Below are positions 1 through 17,297 of a stretch of 24,457 nt of DNA, piece by piece. The DNA lies in the IMG/VR virus record IMGVR_UViG_2534681674_000009, one strand, 5' to 3'. The position numbers and the translations under genes were made by a program. Under the pieces are notes generated by a model. That model did not search any database, was not told the DNA's origin, and saw only the letters and a list, made by a program, of their open reading frames with translations. The first letter of the stretch is position 1. Every line of letters begins with the position of its first letter. Origin of the DNA: a virus. Lineage: Duplodnaviria; Heunggongvirae; Uroviricota; Caudoviricetes.

Positions 1-1943
<1,943 letters not shown>

Positions 1944-4055: not shown

Positions 4056-4231
4056 TTTTGGGGCTAAAAATGGCTGGCGAGAACAAACTGAGCGACAAAG
4101 CGCTTAAAGGATATCTGGGGAAACCCAGAGAAAAGCAGATCACCATTGCTGATGGAAAGGGGCTTTCTATTCGTGTGAGTACTAAAGGGTGAACCGCCCC
4201 GGGTTTCCTGGAGAGTATTTTATCTGTGAAC

Positions 4232-5122
4232 TCAGGCTGCCAGATCATTATTTCCGATGGAAGCATAATAAGCTTTTTCTGCTTCTGCCGGAGGAATATG
4301 GCCCAGCCTTTCCAGCAATCGTCGATTGTTATACCAGTCCACCCACGTTAGTGTGGCCAGTTCCACTTCTGTCCGGTTTTTCCAGCTATTACGGTGTATT
4401 ACCTCCGCTTTGTAAAGACCATTGATGCTCTCAGCCATCGCGTTGTCATACGAGTCGCCAGTACTCCCTGTTGATGCCAGTAATCCGGCTTCCTTAAGCC
4501 GCTGCGTGTAGGCCAGCGATACATACTGAGAACCTTTATCACTGTGATGGATTGTGCCGGACGGCCGACGGGCCCACAACGCCTGCTCCAGTGCATCCAG
4601 CACGAATGTTGTTTCCATGGATGATGAGACCTGCCATCCCACGATGTATCCGGCGAACACATCAATGATGAACGCCACATAAACGAAGCCCTGCCATGTG
4701 CTTACCCAGGTAAAATCAGCCACCCACAACTGGTCTGGACGTTCTGCCACGAACTGACGGTTTACGCGGTCGCATGCGGCAACGGCTTTCCGGCTGACGG
4801 TAGTGCGGACCTTTTTACCCCGGAGAACACCGGCAAGTCCCATAACTGCCATGAGACGTGCCACAGTGCATCTGGCCACTCTGATACCTTCCCGTAACAA
4901 CTGACGCCAGACTTTACGCACACCGTATACCTGGTGATTTTCATCGTATACGCGCTGTATCTCTTTCTTCAGCCAGTCATCGTGCTGCGCACGGGCACTG
5001 CGTTTATCCGGATGATGTCGCTGTTGCTGACAATGGTAATACGTTGACGGGGCAATATGCAGTTCGCTGCATACCGGTCCGACCCCGTACTGCTCACGCA
5101 GCTTATCCAGCAGTGGCATCAT
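4232..5122 (-). CDS. IS629-like transposase OrfB (DDE catalytic domain; normally made as OrfAB by frameshifting)
   Basis: [53 protein letters not shown]...[22 protein letters not shown]... matches recalled IS629/IS1203 OrfB. Confidence 0.9.
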
Positions 5123-5446
5123 TTTTCCAGAGGCGGTCGAACTCCGCCTTCGCAAAATAAGCGGAAGCCTGGCGAAGGATATCGTTACTGCGGCGCAGTT
5201 CACGATTTTCACGTTCCAGCTCTTTCAGACGCTGACGTTCAGCGCTGGTGAGCCCACCATCACCGCCCCCGGTATCCCGCTCATGCTGGCGAACCCAGAC
5301 ACGCAGAGTCTCCGGCGTACAGCCAATCTTTGGGGCAATGGAACTACGATTGCCGCCCACTGTGAGTCATATTCATCCTGACTTTCCAGAACCATACGAA
5401 TCGCCCGCTGACGGACTTCGGGGGAAAAACGAGTATTTTTAGTCAT
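5103..5446 (-). pseudogene. IS629-like OrfA, apparently frameshifted
   Basis: N-terminal [33 protein letters not shown] is in one frame (5225-5446) and the remainder [30 protein letters not shown]...[10 protein letters not shown] in another (5103-5360); junction near 5345-5350. Confidence 0.55.
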
Positions 5447-6620
5447 CCTGTTTACCTCTTTCTCAGGGAGTTTAGTCTCCAGGATTTCCGGGGCGGTTCA
5501 GGGGCTGTGAGCTTTGTTTTCTTCTACAGGTTAGCAGGTGGCCGGGCTGCTCCGGTCTGGCTAACGTTGGGTAAATATCCTGATATGTCACTCAAACAGG
5601 CAAGGGAAAAGCGCGACGAGTGCCGTGGTTGGTTGGCTGACAAACGTGATCCGCGTATCCAGATTAAGATTCAGGCTGAAGAACGCTTAAAGCCGGTTAC
5701 AGTGGAGGATGCACTAAATTACTGGTATGAAAATTACTGTAAGGTGCGTCGTAAAACTCATGCTGTAACGCTTGGCAGATTTCGAAAGCATATCTTTCCC
5801 TATATCGGTCATTTGCCCGTAAATGACACTCACCTATATGAATGGCTGGACTGTTTTGACCGAATTAAACGTAATGCACCAGTTATGGCGGCGTATGTTT
5901 TTTCTGACACTAAATTAGCTCTTCGTTTTTGTCGGGTACGCCAGTACGCGACGTGTGATGCTTTAAAGGATTTGCGCATGAGTGATGTGGGGCAGATTGC
6001 AGGTAAGCGGGATCGGGTTCTGGATGAAGCCGAACTCGGCCAGCTCTGGAAGGCAATTTTTGTCGAGCCTGATTTAAAACTAATGTCTGAATACACGCGA
6101 AAAATGTTTGTGCTTTGTACAGTATTTGGATGTCGAATGAGTGAAGCCCGATTATCAGAATGGAGCGAATGGAATCTCGAAAGTTGGGTTTGGACTGTAC
6201 CAAAAGATCACTCAAAAACTGGTGTTGAAATCGTCAGACCAGTACCTGAAATTCTACGACAGTGGGTAACGGATGTTCACGAAGAGACAAAACATACTGG
6301 TTATGTGCTGGGAAGTCTGCGAATTAGAGAAAGCGTAAGCAAGATTGGGGGGAAAATCGGTAAACGTTTGGGCCATGAAAAACAATGGTCACTACACGAC
6401 CTTAGAAGAACGCTATCTACTCATCTAAGTGATCTCGGTGTTGAATTTTATGTAGTAGAACAACTGTTAGGCCATGCGCTACCTGGCGTGGCAGGTGTTT
6501 ACAACCGGAGTAAGTTTATGGCTAAAAAACTGGATGCTCTGGAACTCTGGACTACATATCTCAATAGCATCGCAGGTGCTGATTCAAAAGTGACAATCCT
6601 CAAACAAAAGGTTGGTTAAC

Positions 6621-6848
6621 ATGAAAAAAATGGCAATTGTTGATAAAAAGGGTCTGGAGTACATTCCTAACATTGACCGAATGATCCGTGAGAAAGAATG
6701 TCGGGAGCTAACCACTCTTGCGAACAGCACACGCTGGAAGCTGGAGAAGGAAGGAAAATTTCCTAAGCGGATCAAGATTGGTTCCACTGCTGTTGCATAT
6801 CGTCTTTCAGAAGTGCAGGCATGGATTCGAGGTGAGTGGGTAGTTTAA
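6621..6848 (+). CDS. alpA: AlpA-like DNA-binding protein (putative excision/regulatory factor)
   Basis: Small basic ORF directly downstream of int with an HTH-like segment ECRELTTLANSTRWKLEKEGKFPKRIKIGSTAVAYRLSEVQAWI, typical of AlpA/Xis-like proteins next to P4-type integrases; ATG 6621 preferred over TTG 6612. Confidence 0.75.
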   Translation: MKKMAIVDKKGLEYIPNIDRMIREKECRELTTLANSTRWKLEKEGKFPKRIKIGSTAVAYRLSEVQAWIRGEWVV

Positions 6849-7454: not shown

Positions 7455-7804
7455 AGCATTCTAACTCCCTTAACTTATTTATTACTTTCTCTTTATGATA
7501 AGAGAGGGGAATGACTTGGTAAAGTGATTTGTCATTAATAATGATAATCCTTGCGATAAATATTTCTGCAAGTTATTTACCTGTTTGTTGCTATCTTGTT
7601 AAGCGTTGGGTGTGGTTTATGTTTGGAGCGACTTTATTTAATCGTGATTTTATGGATTTATATTTATATCCTGTAAGATAAGCGCATGTTAGTTCAGGAG
7701 TAGTGTCAGATAAAATTATTCGGAGTAGAACTACCTTTTCTGTTTATTGCCAGTATTTACATAGCAATGCGCCGTAGTTACTCACATCACGGCGCTGATA
7801 CTAA

Positions 7805-8110
7805 TTATTCAGATTCTTTGGCTTTACGCCGCTGGAGTTCTTCACGAGCGACGGCTACGAGTTGCCCGATTTCCTCCGCTGCCTTGATGCCGATTTGTTC
7901 GACCTTAGCTAAGGCATCCAGTGAAGACACGAGGGGATTTTCTCCGCTTCCTTCTGCCTGGCGGCGGGCGATTTCACCGCGCATGGCGGTTACGATAAAT
8001 CCGGCATTGCTTTCACCGTCCAGCTTAACGGATTCCATCCCTTGCATAACATCTAGTGGGACTCTGACAGTTGTCAGTTGTGATTTTGCGTTTTTGTTAG
8101 CCGTTGCCAT
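7805..8110 (-). CDS. Hypothetical protein, possible regulator (divergent from downstream operon)
   Basis: 101-aa ORF; sits head-to-head with the 8301+ operon across an intergenic region containing repeated operator-like half-sites. Confidence 0.5.
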   Translation of the reverse strand: MATANKNAKSQLTTVRVPLDVMQGMESVKLDGESNAGFIVTAMRGEIARRQAEGSGENPLVSSLDALAKVEQIGIKAAEEIGQLVAVAREELQRRKAKESE

Positions 8111-8300
8111 TTCTGAAACTCCTAATCATCGGTGTGTTTCAGTATACACAAAAAAAGAAATACAAAAAGCCTTGACGTGTGTTTCATGCGCTCATAACAT
8201 GAAACACACCGAAAGGATTGTTGAAATACAAAGAGCAACGCCCCGCAGTGCTGGGAACACATACGGGGCGTCTAACCAACAACGTAAACTAGGAGCCGTT
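8111..8300. promoter_or_regulatory. Divergent promoter/operator region
   Basis: TTGACG (8172-8177) then 17 bp then TAACAT (8195-8200); three copies of GTGTTTCA half-site (8133-8140 and 8179-8186 direct, 8200-8207 inverted), the latter two forming a palindrome over the -10; also inverted repeat GACGCCCCG...CGGGGCGTC at 8239-8273. Confidence 0.45.
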
Positions 8301-8498
8301 ATGGTTGCTGTAAATCATATACCACACCTTGTACACACACAAACGGCCTTTGTGTGGCGTTTTCTGGCACTGAGTGCCGGAGAATCTCAAATCATCCACG
8401 TAACCGCCTGGACGGAACGCGAAGCGCGTAGCCGTTGCCCGTCCGGTTGTGTTGCTGTATTCGCTGCAAAAATCCGCCAGGGAGTGAGTCATGCTTAA
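8301..8498 (+). CDS. Small hypothetical protein (possibly Icd-like)
   Basis: ATG at 8301 preceded by AGGAG (8291-8295); 65 aa MVAVNHIPHLVHTQTAFVWRFLALSAGESQIIHVTAWTEREARSRCPSGCVAVFAAKIRQGVSHA; family assignment is a weak recollection only. Confidence 0.45.
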   Translation: MVAVNHIPHLVHTQTAFVWRFLALSAGESQIIHVTAWTEREARSRCPSGCVAVFAAKIRQGVSHA

Positions 8499-8676
8499 AA
8501 CCTTCCGTGTATTTGCCCGAGCTGTTAACCCAATAGGCCACACAATTGGTATCGCTCAGAATGTGAAGGCTGTTAATGTTCAGACGGCTATTGCTGCGGT
8601 GAGAAGCGAATCATCAGAATATGGCTTATCACAAGTCATTATTTCAGCAGTGTATGAATTAAAAGAGGTGCATTAA
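8491..8676 (+). CDS. Small hypothetical protein
   Basis: 61-aa ORF whose start overlaps the preceding stop (translational coupling). Confidence 0.4.
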   Translation: MLKTFRVFARAVNPIGHTIGIAQNVKAVNVQTAIAAVRSESSEYGLSQVIISAVYELKEVH

Positions 8677-8834
8677 TGCAGGAAATCACATTACACGAAG
8701 CCGCTGAACGTGCGCACCAGACAGAAATTATTGCCGCCTTCTTGAGGTATACCCGAACAAAATTACAGATGCTGATATATCCGCACTGGCGAGCCTACTG
8801 GCGCGTCTTTCGGGAAGTGTCGCTAGTTTTTTGA
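8676..8834 (+). CDS. Small hypothetical protein (52 aa)
   Basis: ATG at 8676 overlapping the previous stop (TAATG), preceded by a strong RBS AGAGGTG (8664-8670); below the ORF-track length cutoff. Confidence 0.4.
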   Translation: MQEITLHEAAERAHQTEIIAAFLRYTRTKLQMLIYPHWRAYWRVFREVSLVF

Positions 8835-8866: not shown

Positions 8867-9088
8867 ATGAATACAGAACGGGAAGTCTTTTTTAAATTGT
8901 TAGCATGTGCAGAAAGTTCATTAACTTTAAATAATTCAGCAAAAGCAATATTAAATATGTGGCTTGATTGCATAAATGACAATGAAGATGCAAATATTGC
9001 TTATGGCCTGTTGTCACTTATTGATGAAGCAGCAGAAAAACTCAATGACGCAATAAATAGTGCCCTGCTATCAAATAAGTCGAGTTAA
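8867..9088 (+). CDS. Small hypothetical protein (AT-rich)
   Basis: 73-aa ORF with GGGGGA RBS upstream; no recognisable family. Confidence 0.4.
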   Translation: MNTEREVFFKLLACAESSLTLNNSAKAILNMWLDCINDNEDANIAYGLLSLIDEAAEKLNDAINSALLSNKSS

Positions 9089-9105: not shown

Positions 9106-9405
9106 ATGGAAATGAAAAATTCTGGCTTTATTGCCAGCGGCCCCGCTCGGCCTGAATTTATGAACGGCGATATTTACCGCGATAAATACGGCGGCACGGT
9201 AACGATTAAAGGCGTGGCAGAACGGCGCATCACTTACCGTCGTGAGGGGTATAGCTATGACTGCGTGATGCCTGTTTATCAGTTCCGGCGTGATTTTTCC
9301 CTGGTATATGCCGCACCCCGCAGTAAGCCCATCAGCAGGGAAAAAGCGCGGGGAAACATCCAGAAAATGAAAAGCATGATTAACGCATTCAGGGGCAAAA
9401 AATGA
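9106..9405 (+). CDS. Hypothetical protein upstream of primase
   Basis: 99-aa ORF with GAGGA RBS; stop overlaps the primase start (ATGA). Confidence 0.5.
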   Translation: MEMKNSGFIASGPARPEFMNGDIYRDKYGGTVTIKGVAERRITYRREGYSYDCVMPVYQFRRDFSLVYAAPRSKPISREKARGNIQKMKSMINAFRGKK

Positions 9406-11153
9406 AACTGGCACCGAACTTAAAAAAACAGCCACGCGACAGACTGACAGAGATAATCATCTTTGCAGGTAGTGATGCGTGGAGCCATGCGAAAGAGTGG
9501 CAGGAATGGGCGGGTAAACATATTGCCGCCGACGATGTGCCGCCTGTCGTGTTGGCTGATGAGCAACTGAAAAACATCACCGATTACCGGATCATTGATG
9601 AAGATCGTCAGTGTGTGCGTGTTTACCGCGCAGGACATATCACAGAGCACAGCATGACGCAGATTGTTACGTTACTGGCTGTGGCTGGAGTGAAGACCGT
9701 ACACGAATACGCGGGGATTACTGACACCAGCCCAGTGGATTTATCCGACCAGTTGCCGCGACTCAAAGAGGAATGCGAGCGTGGGGAAAGCCTGGTGCTT
9801 AATCTTCCGACGAAGCAAAAGGCGCAACTTTCACAGATGGCAGACAGTGAGCGCGCGCAGCTGCTTGCCGAGCGCTTTGATGGCGTTTGTGTGCATCCGG
9901 AAAGTGAAATCGTTCACGTATGGCGCGGCGGGGTATGGTGTCCGATCAGCACAATGGAGCTGAGCCGCGAAATGGTGGCGATCTATTCAGAGCACAGGGC
10001 CACTTTCAGCAAACGCGTGATCAATAACGCCGTTGAAGCGTTAAAAGTTATTGCCGAACCAATGGGCGAGCCGTCCGGCGATTTGCTGCCGTTCGCCAAT
10101 GGTGCGCTTGACCTGAAAACGGGGGAATTTTCCCCGCACACGCCGGAGAACTGGATCACCACGCACAACGGCATTGAGTACACGCCACCAGCACCAGGGG
10201 AGAACATCCGCGATAACGCGCCAAACTTTCATAAATGGCTTGAGCACGCAGCCGGAAAAGACCCGCGCAAGATGATGCGTATATGTGCCGCGCTGTACAT
10301 GATTATGGCGAACCGGTACGACTGGCAGATGTTCATTGAGGCCACCGGAGACGGGGGAAGCGGTAAGAGTACATTTACCCATATTGCCACCCTGCTTGCT
10401 GGCAAACAGAACACCGTAAGCGCAGAGATGACATCACTCGATGATGCAGGAGGGCGTGCGCAGGTTGTCGGGAGTCGTCTTATCGTCCTTGCCGATCAGC
10501 CGAAATATACGGGGGAAGGCACGGGCATCAAGAAAATCACGGGAGGCGATCCCGTTGAAATTAACCCGAAATATGAGAAGCGATTCACGACGATAATAAG
10601 GGCGGTGGTACTGGCAACCAATAACGACCCGATGATCTTTACCGAACGGGCCGGAGGTGTGTCACGCCGTCGGGTGATTTTCCGGTTCGACAACATTGTA
10701 AGGGAGGACGAAAAAGACAAGGAATTACCGGAAAAGATAGCGGCAGAAATCCCCGTAATTATCCGCCGCTTGCTGGCTAATTTTGCTGACCCTGAAAAGG
10801 CACGGGCTTTATTACTGGAACAGCGTGACGGTGATGAAGCTCTGGCAATAAAGCAGCAAACGGATCCGGTTGTTGAGCTTTGCGCGGCGCTGGAGTTTCT
10901 GGAGGAAGCTCGTGGGCTAATGATGGGCGGTGGTGGTGACACCGTGAAGTACACGACCAGAAACAGCCTTTACCGTGTCTATATGGCCTTCATGGCATAT
11001 ACAGGAAAGGGGAAATGTTTGAGCGTGAATGAGTTCGGAAAGGCTATGAGGTCAGCGGCGAAAGTTTACGGATATGAATATATTACGCGAAAAGTTAAGG
11101 GAGTCACGCAGACCAACGCAACGACTACTGATGATTGCGATGCGTTTTTATAA
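9402..11153 (+). CDS. Primase-helicase, D5 / P4-alpha C-terminal-like (SF3 NTPase)
   Basis: 583-aa ORF with Walker A GDGGSGKST and Walker B-like hydrophobic run ending in D (RLIVLADQ); architecture resembles satellite/P4 replication initiators; immediately followed by iterons. Confidence 0.8.
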   Translation: MKLAPNLKKQPRDRLTEIIIFAGSDAWSHAKEWQEWAGKHIAADDVPPVVLADEQLKNITDYRIIDEDRQCVRVYRAGHITEHSMTQIVTLLAVAGVKTVHEYAGITDTSPVDLSDQLPRLKEECERGESLVLNLPTKQKAQLSQMADSERAQLLAERFDGVCVHPESEIVHVWRGGVWCPISTMELSREMVAIYSEHRATFSKRVINNAVEALKVIAEPMGEPSGDLLPFANGALDLKTGEFSPHTPENWITTHNGIEYTPPAPGENIRDNAPNFHKWLEHAAGKDPRKMMRICAALYMIMANRYDWQMFIEATGDGGSGKSTFTHIATLLAGKQNTVSAEMTSLDDAGGRAQVVGSRLIVLADQPKYTGEGTGIKKITGGDPVEINPKYEKRFTTIIRAVVLATNNDPMIFTERAGGVSRRRVIFRFDNIVREDEKDKELPEKIAAEIPVIIRRLLANFADPEKARALLLEQRDGDEALAIKQQTDPVVELCAALEFLEEARGLMMGGGGDTVKYTTRNSLYRVYMAFMAYTGKGKCLSVNEFGKAMRSAAKVYGYEYITRKVKGVTQTNATTTDDCDAFL

Positions 11154-12146: not shown

Positions 12147-12163
12147 ATATTGCCAATAAAAAA

Positions 12164-12190
12164 GGCCGGAAAAAAAAATAAATTTTCCGG
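12164..12190. terminator. Hairpin after ssb (possible terminator)
   Basis: CCGGAAAA ... TTTTCCGG stem with A-rich loop; A/T-rich on both sides. Confidence 0.35.
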
Positions 12191-12365
12191 CATGCTACAT
12201 AAATCCAGACCAAAGGGAGTGAAGATATTAACACTAATTATCCGTGCTGAAGTTGTCATCCCAAAACTTTATACAACATTGCACTCGGTTGCATGTATTC
12301 GCATGACAAATATCGGTGATAGCATATATCCACAATTATTTTTAATGAATGCAAAGAGGATGCGT

Positions 12366-13406
12366 ATGGTTGATTTATATTCGCCTACCCAGCTTGTACA
12401 GGTGGTTAATGCTGTAGATGTACAAAAACAACTAAATGCGTTGTTTACCAGTTTGTTTTTTACTCGCTCGGTAATGTTTGAATCGCGCGATATTATTCTT
12501 GATACAATCGACGATCCAAATATCCCAATTGCAGCGTTTTGTTCTCCTATGGTGGGTAGTAAAGTTTCACGTGACGAAGGGTACGAATCAAAAACAATTC
12601 GTCCAGGCTATATGAAGCCGAAAAGCAGCATTGATCCAAATAAGTTAGCTGTGCGCCCTGCTGGTGTATCACCTGAGCAATACAATGCTTTTGGAGCGCG
12701 TAATATTAAAGTTAAACAGGCGATTGTAAATCAGGCTAAAGCTATTCGTGCACGTATTGAATGGCTTGCCGTTCAGGCAATCACAACGGGGAAAAATATC
12801 ATTGAGGGCGATGGTATTGAACGTTATGAGCTGGACTGGAATATTAAACCACAAAATATCATCACTCAGTCTGGCGGTGCTGAGTGGTCAGGTAAGGATA
12901 AAGAAACTTTTGATCCAAATGATGATATTGAGAGCTACGCAGAATTTAGTGAGGGCGTCACTAATATCATCATTATGGGCGGTAATGTATGGAAGAAATA
13001 CCGTTCATTCAGAGCGATAAAAGAGGCTCTGGATACCCGTCGTGGTTCTAATTCCGAACTGGAAACGGCCCTTAAAGACCTTGGTGATTCGGTGAGTTTT
13101 AAAGGGTATATGGGCGATGTTGCGATTGTTGTATACAGCGGGCGTTATACCGACGAGGACGGAACTGAAAAACATTTCCTTGATCCTGATTTGATGGTGC
13201 TTGGCAATACGGCTCTTCAGGGGATTGTCGCCTATGGCGGTATTCAGGATCCGGAGCTAATCCGAATGGGGCTGACTAAAGCCGAACTTGCACCGAAAAA
13301 CTATATTGTGCCTGGTGATCCGGCTATTGAATATGTGCAGACACATTCAGCACCACAGCCAATACCGGCCCGCATCAATCGTTTTGTTACCGTTCGCATT
13401 GGCTAA
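12366..13406 (+). CDS. Major capsid protein, lambda gpE homologue encoded by the element
   Basis: Start at ATG 12366 (RBS AAGAGG 12354-12359). Product aligns along its length with lambda E, e.g. ITQSGGAEWSGKDKETFDPNDDIESYA...RRGSNSELETALKDLGDSVSFKGYMGDVAIVVYSG vs lambda ITQSGGTEWSKRDKSTYDPTDDIEAYA...RRGSNSELETAVKDLGKAVSYKGMYGDVAIVVYSG; clearly a diverged paralogue, not a duplicate. Confidence 0.85.
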   Translation: MVDLYSPTQLVQVVNAVDVQKQLNALFTSLFFTRSVMFESRDIILDTIDDPNIPIAAFCSPMVGSKVSRDEGYESKTIRPGYMKPKSSIDPNKLAVRPAGVSPEQYNAFGARNIKVKQAIVNQAKAIRARIEWLAVQAITTGKNIIEGDGIERYELDWNIKPQNIITQSGGAEWSGKDKETFDPNDDIESYAEFSEGVTNIIIMGGNVWKKYRSFRAIKEALDTRRGSNSELETALKDLGDSVSFKGYMGDVAIVVYSGRYTDEDGTEKHFLDPDLMVLGNTALQGIVAYGGIQDPELIRMGLTKAELAPKNYIVPGDPAIEYVQTHSAPQPIPARINRFVTVRIG

Positions 13407-13415
13407 GGGGGAGCA

Positions 13416-13757
13416 ATGGCTACTCATTACACTGAACTCATGTCTGGCACTGAAGCACTGGTTACTACGCTGGGGATATTTTCAGCCAATAAAGGGGTAA
13501 TACCTGCGTTTACGCCACTGATGCAGGAAGATGCAACTGGTGCGCTAGTGGTATGGGATGGAACGAGCGCAGGCAAAGCGGTTTATGTTTCCGCTGTACA
13601 AATCGACACAGCGAAAAAAACACAGGCACAGGTTTATAAGACAGGTGTTTTAAATGTTGATGCTCTGAACTGGCCTGAGTCTGTAAGAGAACTGTCGGCA
13701 AAGGTTGCCGCGTTTGTTGGCTCAGGTATTTCTGTTCAGCCGCTGGCTCGTGTGTAA
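13416..13757 (+). CDS. Head decoration protein, lambda gpD homologue encoded by the element
   Basis: 113 aa; ...LVVWDGTSAGKAVYVSAVQ...YKTGVLNVDALNWPE...AAFVGSGISV parallels lambda D ...[19 protein letters not shown]...[15 protein letters not shown]...[11 protein letters not shown]; RBS AAGGGGGA. Confidence 0.8.
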   Translation: MATHYTELMSGTEALVTTLGIFSANKGVIPAFTPLMQEDATGALVVWDGTSAGKAVYVSAVQIDTAKKTQAQVYKTGVLNVDALNWPESVRELSAKVAAFVGSGISVQPLARV

Positions 13758-13768
13758 AGGGGGATACA

Positions 13769-14152
13769 ATGCAGAATGATTACAATGACCTTAAGCCAAT
13801 TGCCGAAATGATGTACCCGAATCCAGCTGTAGAGGAATTAAAAGCTATCGCTGACAAAATGTGTTTAAGCGAGCGCCTTGTTGATATGAATCAGGTGATG
13901 GAAATTACAACCCTGAGTCGGCGTACACTGCTAAACCTTGAGGCTAGTGGAGAGTTCCCGGAGCGTGTGCAGGTTACGGAAGGGCGTAAGGCCTGGTATT
14001 TAAGTGAAGTGATCGACTGGATAAATAATATTCCTCGCGCTTCTGAATATTGCCGCGTACCTGTCCCAAAAAAGCCAGATGCGGCGCTATGCCTCAAGAT
14101 TGAGCGTGTACGCCGCAATGCACGGGATGGTCGCTATAAGCTGATTGGTTGA
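13769..14152 (+). CDS. Second AlpA-like HTH protein
   Basis: 127 aa; segment MNQVMEITTLSRRTLLNLEASGEFPERVQVTEGRKAWYLSEVIDWINN resembles AlpA/MerR-type HTH; RBS AAGGGGGA. Confidence 0.6.
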   Translation: MQNDYNDLKPIAEMMYPNPAVEELKAIADKMCLSERLVDMNQVMEITTLSRRTLLNLEASGEFPERVQVTEGRKAWYLSEVIDWINNIPRASEYCRVPVPKKPDAALCLKIERVRRNARDGRYKLIG

Positions 14153-14340: not shown

Positions 14341-14353
14341 AGTTGTGGTATCA

Positions 14354-14896
14354 ATGAAATTACACCTGATGAACAAAAAAAACATGGCAAAAAGTTGCCG
14401 TGTAAGCGCCACTGCGTTCGATAAGTGGGGAGTGATTCCCGTCGAGCGTAAGGGCCGTGAGGCGTTCTATGATGTTGCCAGTGTAATAGATAATCGGGTT
14501 AACAATGCAATCAGCCAGATTACAAACGAAACGGGCGATATTGATGACGATGAACTTTTACGCGTCAGGATCAGATTACTGACAGCACAGGCAGAGGCGC
14601 AGGAGCTTAAAAACGAGCGCGAACGCGGCGACGTTATTGATACAGAGTTTTGTATGTATGTTCTTTCCAAACTGGCGAGTCAGATTTCATCTATCATGGA
14701 CAGCCTGCCGCTTACCATGCAAAGGCGCTTCCCACAGATGACTCCGGCTATGCTGGATGGACTTAAAAAGGAAGTGGCTAAAGCCTGTAATGCCAGTGCC
14801 GGCGTTGCTGACAACCTCCCACAGATACTGGCTGATTATCTGATGGAAAGTACAGGAAACGTACCGGATAAGTTGCAGCTGAATAAGGATAAGTAA
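14354..14896 (+). CDS. Terminase small subunit, lambda Nu1-like
   Basis: ...RLLTAQAEAQELKNERERGDVIDTEFCMYVLSKLASQISSIMDSLPLTMQRRFP matches lambda Nu1 ...RLTRAQADAQELKNARDSAEVVETAFCTFVLSRIAGEIASILDGLPLSVQRRFP; start codon uncertain (ATG 14354, 14369 or 14384). Confidence 0.8.
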   Translation: MKLHLMNKKNMAKSCRVSATAFDKWGVIPVERKGREAFYDVASVIDNRVNNAISQITNETGDIDDDELLRVRIRLLTAQAEAQELKNERERGDVIDTEFCMYVLSKLASQISSIMDSLPLTMQRRFPQMTPAMLDGLKKEVAKACNASAGVADNLPQILADYLMESTGNVPDKLQLNKDK

Positions 14897-15585: not shown

Positions 15586-16347
15586 TTATTTCCCATCTTT
15601 AAGGTTTAACCAAGTGTTAATTAAAAAAAGAGCCATTGAGCCTGATAAATTTACTGCAAGTTCGGCATGCCTTGGGGATGGCTTAATTGATGAGCTGTTC
15701 GTTCCATGTGCATCACCGAGTTTATTACGAAGAGTACCTAACCCATTTACAACTGCAGAACAACCGCCGAGAATTTGTTTGAAGATATTTTCAGTATGTT
15801 GGTCGGCAGATAGGTTAAGTTCTTTTGAAAGAGTTTTATAAAGCTCTGACATTTCAATATTTTTATTATTATACTGAATGCCCATATCATCAAGAATGTG
15901 TTTGCAAACTGTTTCAAGAAGTGTTCTTGCGGAGGTTATCGCACCATCCGGATCTGTATGGCGCCGTTCAAGTGCTTTTATCCAAACGGCGTGGACTCCA
16001 TCCTCGTTAAACTTTCTTAATACATCAGATATGTCTTCATCCGCTGGAGCTTTATTTTTCCCTTCTAGATAGTCCAGCATCGGCTGAAATGCCTTATAAA
16101 TCAAATCTCTCCGGGGGGCATACTTTTCAGTCTTTTTTATAAATCCCCAAAATTCTTTTAGTGAGCGATTAGTTCTCACAAACTCTGGTAATAGCTGATG
16201 TAAAGGAGGATTTTGTAAGAAATATGTTCTTAGAAGCAAATAATCATTATTAGCTTCATCCTGGGCTCCTGTAGCTCTTGCAATTAGTATGTTTTGAAGC
16301 GCTACTGCGCGCTCTAGGTCATTTTGAAGGGTATCTATAATATTCAT
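15586..16347 (-). CDS. Abi-like protein with HEPN-type Rx4-6H motif (putative abortive-infection / defence effector)
   Basis: 253-aa ORF on the opposite strand at the element's right end; C-terminal LGTLRNKLGDAHG contains R-x6-H as in HEPN/Abi_C family proteins. Confidence 0.55.
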   Translation of the reverse strand: MNIIDTLQNDLERAVALQNILIARATGAQDEANNDYLLLRTYFLQNPPLHQLLPEFVRTNRSLKEFWGFIKKTEKYAPRRDLIYKAFQPMLDYLEGKNKAPADEDISDVLRKFNEDGVHAVWIKALERRHTDPDGAITSARTLLETVCKHILDDMGIQYNNKNIEMSELYKTLSKELNLSADQHTENIFKQILGGCSAVVNGLGTLRNKLGDAHGTNSSSIKPSPRHAELAVNLSGSMALFLINTWLNLKDGK

Positions 16348-16516: not shown

Positions 16517-17297
16517 TGAGGTGAATCCGCAGATGACCCTGCGTCGCCTGCCGGATGAAGATCCGCAGAATCTGGCGGACCCGGCTTACCGCCGCCGTCG
16601 CATCATCATGCAGAACATGCGTGACGAAGAGCTGGCCATTGCCCAGGTCGAAGAGATGCAGGCAGTTTCTGCCGTGCTTAAGGGCAAATACACCATGACC
16701 GGTGAAGCCTTTGATCCGGTTGAGGTGGATATGGGCCGCAGTGCGGCAAACAACATCACACAGTCCGGTGGCACGGAGTGGAGCAAGCGTGACAAGTCCA
16801 CGTATGACCCGACCGACGATATCGAAGCCTACGCGCTGAACGCCAGCGGCGTGGTGAATATCATCGTGTTTGATCCGAAAGGATGGGCGCTGTTCCGTTC
16901 CTTCAAAGCCGTCAGGGATAAGCTGGATACCCGTCGCGGCTCTCATTCCGAGCTGGAGACAGCGGTAAAAGACCTGGGCAAAGCGGTGTCTTATAAGGGA
17001 ATGTATGGCGATGTGGCCATCGTCGTGTATTCCGGACAGTACGTGGAAAACGGCGTCAAAAAGAACTTCCTGCCGGACAACACGATGGTGCTGGGGAACA
17101 CTCAGGCACGCGGTCTGCGTACCTATGGCTGTATTCAGGATGCGGACGCACAGCGCGAAGGCATTAACGCCTCTGCCCGTTACCCGAAAAACTGGGTGAC
17201 TACCGGCGATCCGGCGCGAGAGTTCACCATGATTCAGTCAGCACCGCTGATGCTGCTGGCTGACCCTGATGAGTTCGTGTCCGTACAACTGGCGTAA
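16507..17297 (+). pseudogene. E: Major capsid protein gpE, C-terminal fragment (codons ~80-341)
   Basis: (PKH)EVNPQMTLRRLPDEDPQNLADPAYRRRRIIMQNMRDEELAIAQVEEMQAV...EFTMIQSAPLMLLADPDEFVSVQLA, near-identical to lambda E from residue ~83; no in-frame ATG, upstream in-frame TAG at 16506-16508. Confidence 0.9.

Follow-up and report, generated by a model that had tools for sequence, protein, structure and literature searches.

Whether Gram-negative phage-inducible chromosomal islands (PICIs), a kind of phage satellite, possess a master repressor is a gap in the description of these islands, a global repressor being called 'unclear' in published work, and the locus described here bears on this 'missing' repressor. 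The window, by which we mean the whole stretch of 24,457 bp that was analysed, contains an interval of 190 bp (8111-8300) that separates a leftward gene for a 101-aa protein from a rightward operon that includes a primase-helicase gene. A preliminary description had proposed a repressor-controlled divergent switch for the replication operon in this interval, and the switch, as predicted, agrees with every comparative test that we ran. We consider it probable, on comparative grounds, that 8111-8300 is the control hub of the island, at which a YlcI-like repressor would act on a row of boxes, O1-O5, and an antisense RNA would lie over icd.

Island context and predicted promoters

The island interrupts the major capsid gene of a lambdoid (lambda-like) prophage: the window aligns to both flanks of the island in the strain-104 locus, which is 99.9% identical and whose annotation shows one pseudogene half of the prophage major capsid gene on either side of the island. 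Not counting the IS, the island is ~12 kb long and encodes, in this order, a tyrosine integrase (~4069-6619), AlpA (6621-6848; PF05930, 2.8e-15) and a primase-type replication module, with a second AlpA-like protein at 13769-14152. This gene order, in an island of ~10-20 kb, characterises Gram-negative PICIs. The element belongs to their helper-embedded subtype (HE-PICI), which has already been published. Induction and transfer by a helper phage have been reported for 11capE and EcCICFT073 (PMC10111431, PMC6092414). The copy in the window may be immobile, because its integrase gene is split by an IS3-family element.

The rightward operon (plus strand) begins with an Icd-like gene (8301-8498), recognized by NCBIfam NF033153 (1.2e-17) and by Pfam and PHROG searches, and continues with small ORFs (8491-8676, 8676-8834 and 8867-9088), a DUF4222 gene (9106-9405) and, directly downstream of the latter, a D5-type primase-helicase gene (D5_N/DUF5906; 9402-11153). 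From icd to the primase, the reading frames abut or overlap. The region was matched in 1,262 of 5,426 complete E. coli genomes, about a quarter. In the phage collection, 8111-8498 had no match at the DNA level and tblastn with the 101-aa protein found nothing; the Icd-like protein had a single match there, in a 16.5-kb 'induced prophage' with a different, unidirectional layout.

The rightward promoter that had been described as TTGACG, a 17-bp spacer and TAACAT is found at 8172-8177 and 8195-8200 (plus strand; 9/12 in the promoter scan), with an inferred start at ~8207, and is referred to below as P_R. The hexamers alone are no evidence, since a similar number of such sites occurs by chance (5 in the region versus 3.7 in shuffles). 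What speaks for P_R is their conserved position in 17 related loci, from Escherichia, Photorhabdus, Yersinia, Scandinavium, Pantoea, Lelliottia, Xenorhabdus and one Pseudomonas-labelled contig: a -35 and a TAnnnT hexamer at 17-18 bp lie at the same position in all loci examined. With hexamers 17 bp apart, inside the 16-18 bp expected of a sigma-70 promoter, and conserved in position, P_R is a predicted promoter of this type. On the opposite strand, TATACT (8141-8146) is the probable -10 of a leftward promoter, P_L, starting at ~8134. Its -35 is weak or absent, which is a point against the switch proposed here, and the scan did not call the -10. The block CAGTATACA(C/T) is kept beside box 1 in loci with differing boxes, and Pantoea and Lelliottia retain a TAnnnT hexamer. 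The leftward gene is preceded by a Shine-Dalgarno sequence, GGAG, read at 8119-8122 (minus strand), 8 nt before the ATG.

Box grid and the adjacent YlcI/YnfO-family protein

Three half-sites had been noted in the interval, and GTGTGTTTCA is indeed present in three exact copies, at 8132-8141 (plus strand), 8177-8186 (plus) and 8200-8209 (minus); these are the only ones in the entire window, all inside 78 bp. Three copies of any 10-mer in 190 bp were reached in 1 of 20,000 dinucleotide-preserving shuffles, whereas the 8-mer originally named is weaker alone, three copies being reached in 10 of 100 whole-window shuffles. The last two copies form the reported palindrome, with arms GTGTGTTTCATG (8177-8188) and CATGAAACACAC (8198-8209) and 9 bp between them, but the dyad is not centred over the -10: its centre, ~8193, lies just upstream, and it is the right arm that overlaps the -10 and the start site of P_R. 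The distance from the upstream half-site (8132-8141) to the second, given as 40 bp, is in fact 45 bp. In addition, 8129-8141 and 8200-8212 pair as a 13-nt perfect inverted match (TCGGTGTGTTTCA / TGAAACACACCGA).

Computed across the 17 loci, the boxes fall on a fixed grid at -40, -17, +5, +28 and +50 relative to the -35. In the window, O1 (GTGTGTTTCA, exact; 8132-8141, plus strand; -40) lies over the end of the P_L -10 and its start site, at a position where a box is kept in most of the loci scanned. O3 (GTGTGTTTCA, exact; 8177-8186, plus; +5), the left arm of the palindrome, abuts the -35 and fills the P_R spacer, and O4 (TGAAACACAC, exact and inverted; 8200-8209, minus; +28), the right arm, extends from the final base of the -10 over the start site. 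Two further boxes are degenerate: O2 (AGAAATACAA; 8156-8165, minus; -17), which matches TGAAACACAC at 7 of 10 positions, and O5 (TGAAATACAA; 8222-8231, minus; +50), which matches at 8 of 10 and overlaps the U-rich tail of the predicted antisense RNA. Both lie on the ~22-23-bp grid and are not significant in the window alone, but their positions are conserved in other loci: at -17 the long-form loci L003, L004, L008, L009, L010, L011 and L012 each carry their own box in good form, and L004, L011 and L015 have better copies at +50/+51. The preliminary description contained neither O2 and O5 nor the probable leftward promoter and the hairpin at 8238-8271.

Regular direct and inverted repeats upstream of a primase-helicase operon might be iterons, or another replication or packaging signal of the island, rather than transcriptional operators. 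We regard this as extremely improbable, given that the boxes stay in constant register relative to the -35 and -10, that mapping has placed the PICI origin downstream of pri-rep (PMC6092414, PMC10111431), and that box changes track the N-terminus of the YlcI-like protein. The replication module was compared through DUF4222, directly upstream of the primase, and two loci whose boxes differ are 100% identical in it.

The box sequence varies by locus (GTGTGTTTCA, GTGTGATTCA, GTGTATTTCA, TGTATATCAC, GTGTAAGACA, GTGCGATTCA, GTGTGCATT, TGTGCGCACA, GTGGGCCACA and others) and changes with the N-terminal 24 residues of the YlcI-like protein, defining at least 13 specificity classes; this covariation was counted among related sequences and is partly inherited, so that independent events are fewer than the counts suggest. 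The N-terminal strand QLTTVR accompanies GTGTGTTTCA in E. coli and Photorhabdus, KQISIR accompanies GTGTGATTCA in E. coli and Yersinia, and QMTTVR accompanies GTGTATTTCA in E. coli and Xenorhabdus, while QMTTIR goes with TGTATATCAC in five distinct loci and QQLNAR with GTGCGATTCA in six of seven. The seventh, L010, combines QQLNAR with GGTATTCAC; the relation between strand and box is thus not one-to-one, which counts against our main reading. Because the boxes of QMTTVR and QMTTIR differ more than a single residue would suggest, the N-terminal arm must contribute as well. Between loci from different genera that share a strand, boxes are 75-85% identical versus 55-68% for the spacers, which resembles the conservation expected of a footprint. 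The orientation of the boxes varies, from inverted in the window to all direct in EcCICFT073, another point against the main reading. The short forms of the protein (59-61 aa; L014, L018 and L019) go with loci that have no -17 box and a third box at +40/+41, suggesting that the layout of the sites follows the architecture of the protein.

Comparisons of loci that have exchanged modules implicate the N-terminus. Relative to the window, L009 is 94.8% identical over residues 25-101 of the YlcI-like protein and 37.5% identical over residues 1-24, and its boxes differ. L011 is 100% identical to the window in YlcI-like residues 25-101, AlpA and DUF4222, yet it has a different N-terminal strand and different boxes (TGTATATCAC). 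L009 and L020 share a small downstream leftward protein (WP_157918692.1) and differ in their boxes. The preliminary description had named two candidate regulators, the product of 7805-8110 and the AlpA-like proteins; these comparisons favour the former, whose N-terminus covaries with the boxes, and speak against AlpA. The Icd-like product is likewise disfavoured as the box-binder, because in L023, which is without a YlcI gene, the leader and icd DNA are 93.7% identical to the window and the promoter-operator module is different. Since the boxes track its N-terminal strand and differ between loci with identical AlpA or the same icd, the 101-aa protein is the best candidate for a repressor acting on the icd-primase operon, and probably on its own gene as well.

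It could be argued that the boxes are operators of AlpA, of the second AlpA-like protein, of a helper-phage protein or of a host factor, and that the YlcI-like gene is merely adjacent. In EcCICFT073, AlpA, an activator of island genes, is the sole regulator with experimental support (PMC6092414), and helper proteins are at hand because the island sits inside its helper. We nevertheless find this very unlikely: boxes change with the first 24 YlcI-like residues while the rest of the protein and the neighbouring genes stay unchanged, L011 has different boxes with a 100% identical AlpA (of the two AlpA-like proteins, the one at 6621-6848 was compared across loci), and at least 13 box sequences within one species are unexplained by a host or helper factor. 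A somewhat less remote, though still unlikely, alternative is that the adjacent protein does bind the boxes, as an activator of P_L/P_R or as a Cro-like late shut-off factor rather than a maintenance repressor, in which case quiescence would have another source, perhaps no more than a lack of AlpA. P_L, lacking a -35, might need activation, and O2 sits where class I or II activators bind. On the other hand, every locus has O3 and O4 over the P_R spacer, -10 and start site, a position for repression and not for activation, and P_R, with its near-consensus -35, needs on paper no activator. From the computed repeats, grid and covariation, we infer DNA binding by the YlcI-like protein, activity of the promoters that it would cover, and regulation in the direction of repression.

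The candidate operator-binding repressor (7805-8110, minus strand) belongs to the YlcI/YnfO family, as seen from its matches to NCBIfam NF041551 (E=2.7e-17, 62.6 bits versus a cut-off of 30, residues 9-50) and phrog_6522 (5e-64). Proteins of this type in our set have 59-110 aa. An alignment-based AF2 monomer model (pLDDT 82.5) has an extended segment at 6-17 and helices at 19-28, 35-53 and 59-100, the strand needing a dimer; it suggests that residues ~10-53 form an Arc-like strand-helix-helix at the N-terminus, with a helical segment behind it at the C-terminus. The hhalign comparison with Arc gave P=0.0037 and a probability of only 9%; it matched R16 to Arc R13 and P18 to Arc P15, which is the register to be expected. 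UniRef gives two homologues the name 'Arc-like DNA binding domain-containing protein', and 34 of 42 members have sub-threshold matches to PF07704 (PSK_trans_fac, 'Rv0623-like transcription factor'), a family of the ribbon-helix-helix clan. No Pfam family exceeded the threshold, the PDB profile search listed no ribbon-helix-helix protein, and fold searches with the 101-aa protein were uninformative. The N-terminal arm and two variable strand positions, 12 and 14, which precede the invariant R16-x-P18, change together with the box across the classes, an indirect indication, through covariation, that strand changes shift the DNA target as in ribbon-helix-helix proteins, where alternate residues of the strand contact the bases. 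The fold that we propose as most likely for the YlcI-like protein is an Arc/Mnt-like ribbon-helix-helix dimer. Literature searches on YlcI/YnfO function, on ribbon-helix-helix proteins in PICIs and on Icd-like genes in satellites returned nothing on this module, and a 2026 survey lists YlcI/YnfO as a 'prophage-associated protein' without function (PMC13612085).

Conserved hairpin and predicted antisense RNA

The description of 8111-8300 as a divergent intergenic control region stands, with the qualification that 8222-8300 is no simple spacer: it holds a conserved hairpin at 8238-8271 (minus strand), with outer stem ACGCCCCG/CGGGGCGT and an inner stem of 3-4 bp. Among 35 distinct sequences, read on the minus strand, the hairpin has 13 pairs, nine of them with compensatory changes, and 96.7% of cells are paired; its covariation value was reached by none of 500 shuffles, although among related sequences such changes are in part inherited and the independent events fewer than counted. 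The structure is strongly biased towards this strand. Consensus folding of the same alignment gives -21.0 kcal/mol for the minus strand versus -3.36 for the plus strand, and in 76 hairpins the 546 Watson-Crick cells are accompanied by 62 that are A·C on the plus strand, and hence G·U on the minus strand, with plus-strand G·U cells numbering zero. The 12 nt after the stem contain on average 5.9 U on the minus strand versus 1.2 on the plus strand, with a U frequency of 0.78-0.88 at positions 6-8 (minus strand). In the window, this U-rich tract is UGCUCUUUGUAUUU (8224-8237, minus), the likely 3' end of an antisense RNA. Directly 5' of the hairpin on that RNA is the near-invariant UGGUUAGA, corresponding to TCTAACCA on the plus strand (8271-8278).

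A probable promoter for such an RNA, P_as, lies within the first icd codons (8314-8342, minus strand; inferred start ~8307), with a -35 TTGTGT (reverse complement of 8337-8342), a 17-bp spacer and a -10 TATGAT (reverse complement of 8314-8319). The promoter score peaks sharply at one distance from the hairpin. Of 83 distinct sequences, 82 have a -10 of the TATGAT/TATGCT type (A2, T6), which in 73 lies 43-44 nt from the hairpin, and this distance is maintained while that of the icd ATG is 30, 31 or 37 nt. Two features count against the antisense reading: the P_as -35 is poor in most loci, and the U-run begins 4-5 nt after the stem, which is not canonical for a terminator. A terminator scan made no call at 8224-8271, since the loop exceeds the limit of the scan. 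Taking the computed RNA covariation and strand bias together, we infer that the hairpin is the probable 3' stem or terminator of a cis-antisense RNA of ~80 nt (8226-8307, minus strand), to which P_as, hairpin and U-tail all point; with these predicted ends, the RNA would cover the icd Shine-Dalgarno sequence (8291-8295) and ATG (8301-8303).

The hairpin might instead act in the sense leader, as a reduced C4/CI/IsrK relative or as a stability or processing element, with no antisense RNA being made. It lies between P_R and icd, exactly in the place of C4 in L024 and in P1 immI; the sense hairpin is itself stable (-18.4 kcal/mol, z=-2.5) and is followed by an ACCA-containing tail. The strand-asymmetry counts nevertheless assign it to the antisense strand: all 62 non-Watson-Crick cells are A·C in the sense orientation and G·U in the antisense one, with none in reverse, the sense consensus is far less stable (-3.4 versus -21.0 kcal/mol), and U-rich sequence follows the stem on the antisense side only. 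Moreover, C4 and isrK models found no match at gathering score in the window and none even at E<=10 over 8000-8600 on both strands, although the same models detect the true copy in L024, so that we rejected a C4/CI/IsrK identity for the leader hairpin and consider a sense-strand function improbable. Rfam searches of the window and of 8000-8600, both strands, found no matching family for the hairpin or the antisense RNA.

Two other elements were examined and dismissed. A terminator-like stem inside icd (8336-8356), considered as an attenuator, is confined to the HTQTAFVWRF icd subtype and follows from its codons. Complementarity between the hairpin loop and the boxes was also discarded, since the loop retains its motif, GAACAC, in loci whose boxes are different.

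Proposed switch and related systems

In the switch that we propose, two back-to-back promoters would fire from the interval: P_R, driving the icd-like gene, four small ORFs, DUF4222 and the primase-helicase, and the weaker P_L, driving the 101-aa YlcI/YnfO-family gene. The 101-aa protein would bind the row of 10-bp boxes O1-O5, ~22-23 bp apart, and its extra C-terminal helical module could link dimers. As O3 and O4 fill the P_R spacer and cover the -10 and start site, their occupation would exclude RNA polymerase from P_R and leave the replication operon silent, while O1 and O2, over the P_L start and upstream region, would provide negative autoregulation. Specificity would reside in the N-terminal arm and the beta-strand (positions 12 and 14 before R16-x-P18), and exchange of this segment between islands along with the boxes would create separate specificity ('immunity') groups. 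A second layer would be added by the convergent promoter in the first icd codons, whose ~80-nt antisense RNA would pair with icd across its ribosome-binding site and start codon. Repression might be lifted by an anti-repressor that the helper encodes, or by transcription reading through from upstream, be it AlpA-activated or late transcription of the helper.

It is a real, if tentative, possibility that Gram-negative PICIs at large, including EcCICFT073, have such a master repressor, a YlcI/YnfO protein with swappable N-terminal 24 residues and boxes, plus a widespread icd cis-antisense RNA. New here are a specific candidate repressor, its putative operators and a readable recognition code, as well as a candidate antisense RNA family absent from Rfam. 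If the proposal is correct, helper induction, through AlpA, late read-through or an anti-repressor, overrides a two-layer lock, and the YlcI/YnfO family, which includes E. coli K-12 y-genes, would acquire its first function; it also suggests a way to keep engineered PICI 'drones' silent or to make them orthogonal. Should the protein not bind, an ordinary conserved promoter region remains.

One of the closest known parallels is the immI region of phage P22, which comprises the ribbon-helix-helix repressors Mnt and Arc, the divergent promoters P_mnt and P_ant, and the sar antisense RNA. As predicted for the island, a small strand-helix-helix repressor there is divergent from the operon that it controls, and operators overlap back-to-back promoters. 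Like Mnt, the 101-aa protein is predicted to have an extra C-terminal helical module, and like sar, the predicted short antisense RNA would arise from a promoter inside the first downstream gene and cover its ribosome-binding site. Unlike in P22, however, the operon under control is the replication module of a satellite, with an Icd-like gene and not an antirepressor at its head, there are five boxes 22-23 bp apart instead of one 17-21-bp operator, and sequence homology is undetected beyond the marginal alignment with Arc. The 22-23-bp spacing is wider than that of characterised ribbon-helix-helix operators, which is a further point against the main reading.

Predicted control at the RNA level of an icd-like first gene is also reminiscent of P1/P7 immI (c4-icd-ant), the P4 CI RNA and IsrK (Rfam models RF01695 for C4 and RF01394 for isrK), and L024 carries C4 and isrK copies just upstream of its icd-like gene. 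Those RNAs, however, are encoded upstream of icd in the sense direction and work by means of short loops that are complementary to their targets. The element described here has its structure on the antisense strand and overlaps the start of icd, and neither Rfam model matches it.

Among satellites, the arrangement is that of the stl-str region of SaPIs and Gram-positive PICIs, in which a leftward regulator next to int, Stl (Rpr), is divergent from a rightward replication operon. Stl is a larger helix-turn-helix repressor, unlike the 59-110-aa strand-helix-helix type considered here, but the proposed role is the same, namely to keep the satellite silent until the helper acts (PMC6092414). One PICI paper describes all non-hypothetical genes as unidirectional, and the literature examined on HE-PICI 11capE/EcCICFT073 makes no mention of the leftward gene, the boxes or the antisense element. 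The island resembles 11capE in its int, AlpA, primase, SSB and capsid E and D homologues and in its insertion in the prophage capsid gene E, and EcCICFT073 (NC_004431.1, 1380473-1380652), the model PICI, carries the same YlcI/Icd divergent module as the window.

Boxes on a constant grid around putative divergent promoters

The intergenic region separates a leftward gene for a 101-aa YlcI/YnfO-family protein (7805-8110; NCBIfam NF041551, E=2.7e-17; hereafter YlcI-like protein) from a rightward Icd-like gene (icd, 8301-8498; NF033153, E=1.2e-17), which is followed by three small ORFs, DUF4222 and a D5-type primase-helicase gene, in this order. The sequence GTGTGTTTCA is present here in three exact copies, at 8132-8141 (proposed operator O1) and 8177-8186 (O3) on the plus strand and 8200-8209 (O4) on the minus strand, with no fourth exact copy elsewhere in the 24,457-bp window; only 1 of 20,000 dinucleotide-preserving shuffles contained any 10-mer three times in 190 bp. 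The two right-hand copies form a 12-bp palindrome (arms 8177-8188 and 8198-8209), and the outer copies have 13 bp in common (TCGGTGTGTTTCA). The three half-sites and the palindrome noticed in the preliminary description are thus borne out, as is its TTGACG-17-TAACAT promoter, the putative rightward promoter P_R, called by promoter scanning at 8172-8200 with a score of 9/12, a grade of match in which the region is no richer than shuffled sequence. The third half-site does lie upstream (O1), at 45 bp from the second copy rather than the 40 bp described.

Homologous regions were compared from seven loci outside E. coli (six other Enterobacterales genera plus one contig labelled Pseudomonas lundensis), 15 divergent E. 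coli loci, EcCICFT073 (the model Gram-negative phage-inducible chromosomal island, PICI) and ~120 IMG/VR contigs. They follow a constant layout. From left to right, the leftward gene's ATG precedes a first box and a conserved CAGTATACA (a TATACT -10 when read on the minus strand); an A-rich spacer holding an inverted box then leads to TTGACx. Another box fills the promoter spacer up to a TAnnnT -10, beyond which lie one or two more. Relative to the first -35 base, boxes recur across loci at -40, -17, +5, +28 and +50, and at least 13 different box sequences occupy this constant grid; in the window, positions -17 and +50 are taken by O2 (8156-8165, 7/10 matches) and O5 (8222-8231, 8/10 matches). 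EcCICFT073 itself has a 59-aa YlcI/YnfO gene, TTGACG-17-TATAGT, GTGGGCCACA boxes at +5 and +28, and GTGGGGGACA at -40. The P. lundensis-labelled contig carries an enterobacterial-type island with a typical module, which could reflect contamination or horizontal transfer; its leader (L008) and those of L003, L005 and L006 additionally share a conserved block, CCTTATCCACAGGT.AA.CACAGG, located past the last box and ahead of a leader hairpin.

The protein that would read the boxes

The box sequence tracks the N-terminus of the YlcI-like protein encoded next to it. The strand QLTTVR is paired with GTGTGTTTCA in E. coli and Photorhabdus, KQISIR with GTGTGATTCA in E. coli and Yersinia, QMTTVR with GTGTATTTCA in E. 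coli and Xenorhabdus, QMTTIR with TGTATATCAC in five distinct loci, and QQLNAR with GTGCGATTCA in 6/7 loci; QSLTAR, QKIQAR and AKKNIR go with GTGTAAGACA, TGGAATCCAG and TGTGCGCACA, respectively, and QALKAR of EcCICFT073 with GTGGGCCACA. In the family alignment, residues 2-24 are the most variable and later residues are nearly invariant. Across genera, same-strand pairs show 75-85% identity in the boxes versus 55-68% in the spacers, and three of the loci that encode a short form (59-61 aa; L014, L018, L019) lack the -17 box and have the third box at +40/+41; both observations agree with the N-terminus as the specificity determinant.

Natural module swaps exclude the neighbouring candidates from this role. 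In L011, the YlcI-like protein is 100% identical to that of the window from residue 25, AlpA and DUF4222 are 100% identical, and the boxes differ, which rules out AlpA. L009, with 94.8% identity from residue 25 versus 37.5% before it, also has different boxes, and shares its small downstream leftward protein with L020, where the boxes differ again, ruling out the neighbouring leftward ORF. Icd is ruled out by L023, in which the leader and icd DNA is 93.7% identical to the window, the YlcI gene is absent and a different promoter module contains two GGTAATTACC palindromes. Of the regulators suggested initially, the 7805-8110 product or the AlpA-like proteins, these sequence comparisons implicate the former, through its N-terminus, and exclude AlpA as the determinant of specificity.

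The O157-type islands (L023 and L024, 1720-1800 in each) retain the same hairpin and icd, but in place of the YlcI/box module they have a Bro/eta-like gene, co-oriented, and a promoter with a ATGGTAATTACC repeat on either side. The sequence GGTAATTACC is perfectly palindromic, and these repeats are presumably operators of a different regulator. YlcI/YnfO paralogues (…TTTRNIRFPNQMIEQ…) were also found in lambdoid prophages of two island-bearing E. coli genomes, adjoining cos and the small terminase gene, at 2750-2944 of L001 (the prophage hosting the island in strain 104) and 8101-8334 of L027 (another prophage, in CFT073), and may form mixed dimers with the island protein or otherwise contact it or its boxes.

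A ribbon-helix-helix fold is the likeliest for the YlcI-like protein, but is unproven. The pattern SQ-x4-R-x-P-x-(D/E)-V ... G-E-S ... F-I-V-T-A aligns with Arc, pairing R16 with Arc R13 and P18 with Arc P15, although hhalign against Arc gave a P-value of 0.0037 with a probability of only 9%. Two homologues are named 'Arc-like DNA binding domain-containing protein' in UniRef, and 34/42 members have sub-threshold matches to PF07704 (PSK_trans_fac), a member of the ribbon-helix-helix clan; no curated family matched above threshold. In the AF2 model built on the alignment (pLDDT 82.5), the N-terminus is extended and is followed by helices spanning residues 19-28, 35-53 and 59-100; the last of these, a long one, dominated the fold searches. 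In the Arc register, the strand would face the DNA with positions 12, 14 and 16, and variability is confined to the first two. Residues 46-86, present in long forms only (…SSLDALAKVEQIGIKAAEEIGQLV…) and including invariant I73 and G74, weakly match the helix-hairpin-helix domain of Hef (E=0.009); the AF2 model shows one continuous helix there instead.

The leader hairpin and a predicted antisense RNA

The leader contains a hairpin (8238-8271), followed by a nearly invariant TCTAACCA. The hairpin is kept in every locus, including those without a YlcI gene, and its borders coincide with breakpoints in the E. coli homology (424 and 488 in query numbering, 8228 and 8292 in the window). Strand matters for its covariation, since plus-strand A·C cells are G·U on the minus strand: in 19 sequences, all 16 of 16 non-Watson-Crick cells were A·C on the plus strand, one register artefact aside, and 76 distinct hairpins, sampled with the outer stem unconstrained, yielded 546 Watson-Crick, 62 A·C and 0 G·U plus-strand cells. 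For 35 distinct minus-strand sequences, RNAalifold predicted 13 pairs at -21.0 kcal/mol, 9 with compensatory changes, versus 6 pairs at -3.4 kcal/mol for the reverse complement of the same alignment. On this structure 96.7% of cells pair, compared to 40-57% for slid partners, and none of 500 shuffles reached the observed value on any of five measures. Single-sequence energies favoured the minus strand in 34/35 cases, and only on that strand is the stem followed by a U-rich stretch (5.9 versus 1.2 U in 12 nt), the U-run of the putative terminator beginning 4-5 nt after the stem.

A -10-like TATGAT/TATGCT (A2, T6) occurs in 82/83 distinct sequences, in 73 of which its distance upstream of the hairpin, read on the minus strand, is 43-44 nt. 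This spacing is kept although the icd start codon lies at 30, 31 or 37 nt, which ties the motif to the RNA element and not to the reading frame. In the window, the putative antisense -10 is at 8314-8319 and a -35, TTGTGT, at 8337-8342, 17 bp away (both reverse complement); -35 elements are mostly poor, and in the commonest type TGn precedes the -10. Together, the hairpin, U-tail and -10-like motif predict an antisense RNA of ~80 nt, from about 8307 to about 8228. It would span both the Shine-Dalgarno sequence and the start codon of icd, run convergently to P_R and have a tail overlapping O5.

The element has no Rfam family match on either strand, and membership in the C4/CI/IsrK RNA families was rejected accordingly. 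L024 has a true C4 and isrK pair, recognised by these models, ahead of its second icd-like gene (2003-2188: truncated first icd copy, isrK at 66 bits, C4 at 77.6 bits, second icd-like gene), a tandem arrangement indicating that antisense-type and C4-type controls can share one island. A terminator-like stem and T-run inside icd (8336-8366; CACACAAACGGCCTTTGTGTG GCGTTTTCTG) is confined to one icd subtype and is explained by HTQTAFVWRF codons.

Island context, proposed control and known systems

At least 20 E. coli chromosomes match the 7700-8700 segment at 100% identity, and 1,262 of 5,426 complete genomes match some part of it. The strain 104 island, with the gene order int, AlpA, hyp, YlcI | Icd ... 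primase, SSB, capsid, decoration, AlpA-like, cargo, is flanked by two halves of a lambdoid prophage major capsid gene. In the window, the lambda-E-like major capsid gene of the host prophage is likewise split (3662-~3940 and 16521-17297) by the island, which encodes its own capsid E-like (12150-13406) and decoration D-like (13416-13757) proteins. The window island is of the published helper-embedded PICI type, 11capE; the paper describing it (PMC10111431) is silent on the leftward gene, on the boxes and on operators in general. An IS3-family element (4190-5499; rve transposase and a programmed-frameshift pseudoknot, ALIL, at 5048-5163), absent from the 99.9% identical strain 104 island, splits the integrase gene ~120 nt in, and the window copy is probably unable to excise. 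Late in the island lie a second AlpA-family protein (13769-14152) and a Nu1-like, small-terminase-related protein (14345-14896), possibly an Rpp-type packaging redirector. The minus-strand cargo gene (15586-16347) has an Abi_C domain (PADLOC AbiJ match, 2.2e-21) and HEPN and DUF262 genes occupy the same spot in strain 104, a difference that marks a variable defence hotspot.

We propose O1-O5 as operators of the YlcI-like protein. Bound at O3 and O4, it would block P_R and silence icd, DUF4222 and primase; bound at O1 and O2, it would reduce its own production from the putative leftward promoter P_L. The antisense RNA would add a post-transcriptional lock on the icd-like first gene, which is probably toxic, and possibly transcriptional interference. 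Sequence comparison establishes the repeats, their grid, the strand bias and both covariation patterns, whereas DNA binding, control direction, promoter use and the RNA are inferred from these. Release might come from rightward transcription, starting at an AlpA-activated promoter or in helper late genes (the latter proposed in PMC10111431), that would run antisense through the repressor gene straight into the operon, or from an anti-repressor supplied by the helper, as in the case of SaPI Stl.

The founding paper on Gram-negative PICIs reported only the activator AlpA and called a global repressor 'unclear' (PMC6092414); the later PICI literature searched does not address the module, which EcCICFT073 also carries. 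The main interest of the proposed switch is that it narrows this open question of satellite control to a few tests. In island position and proposed role, its closest counterpart is the Stl/Rpr repressor of Gram-positive PICIs; in logic it is closest to P22 immI, with its Mnt/Arc repressors and sar RNA.
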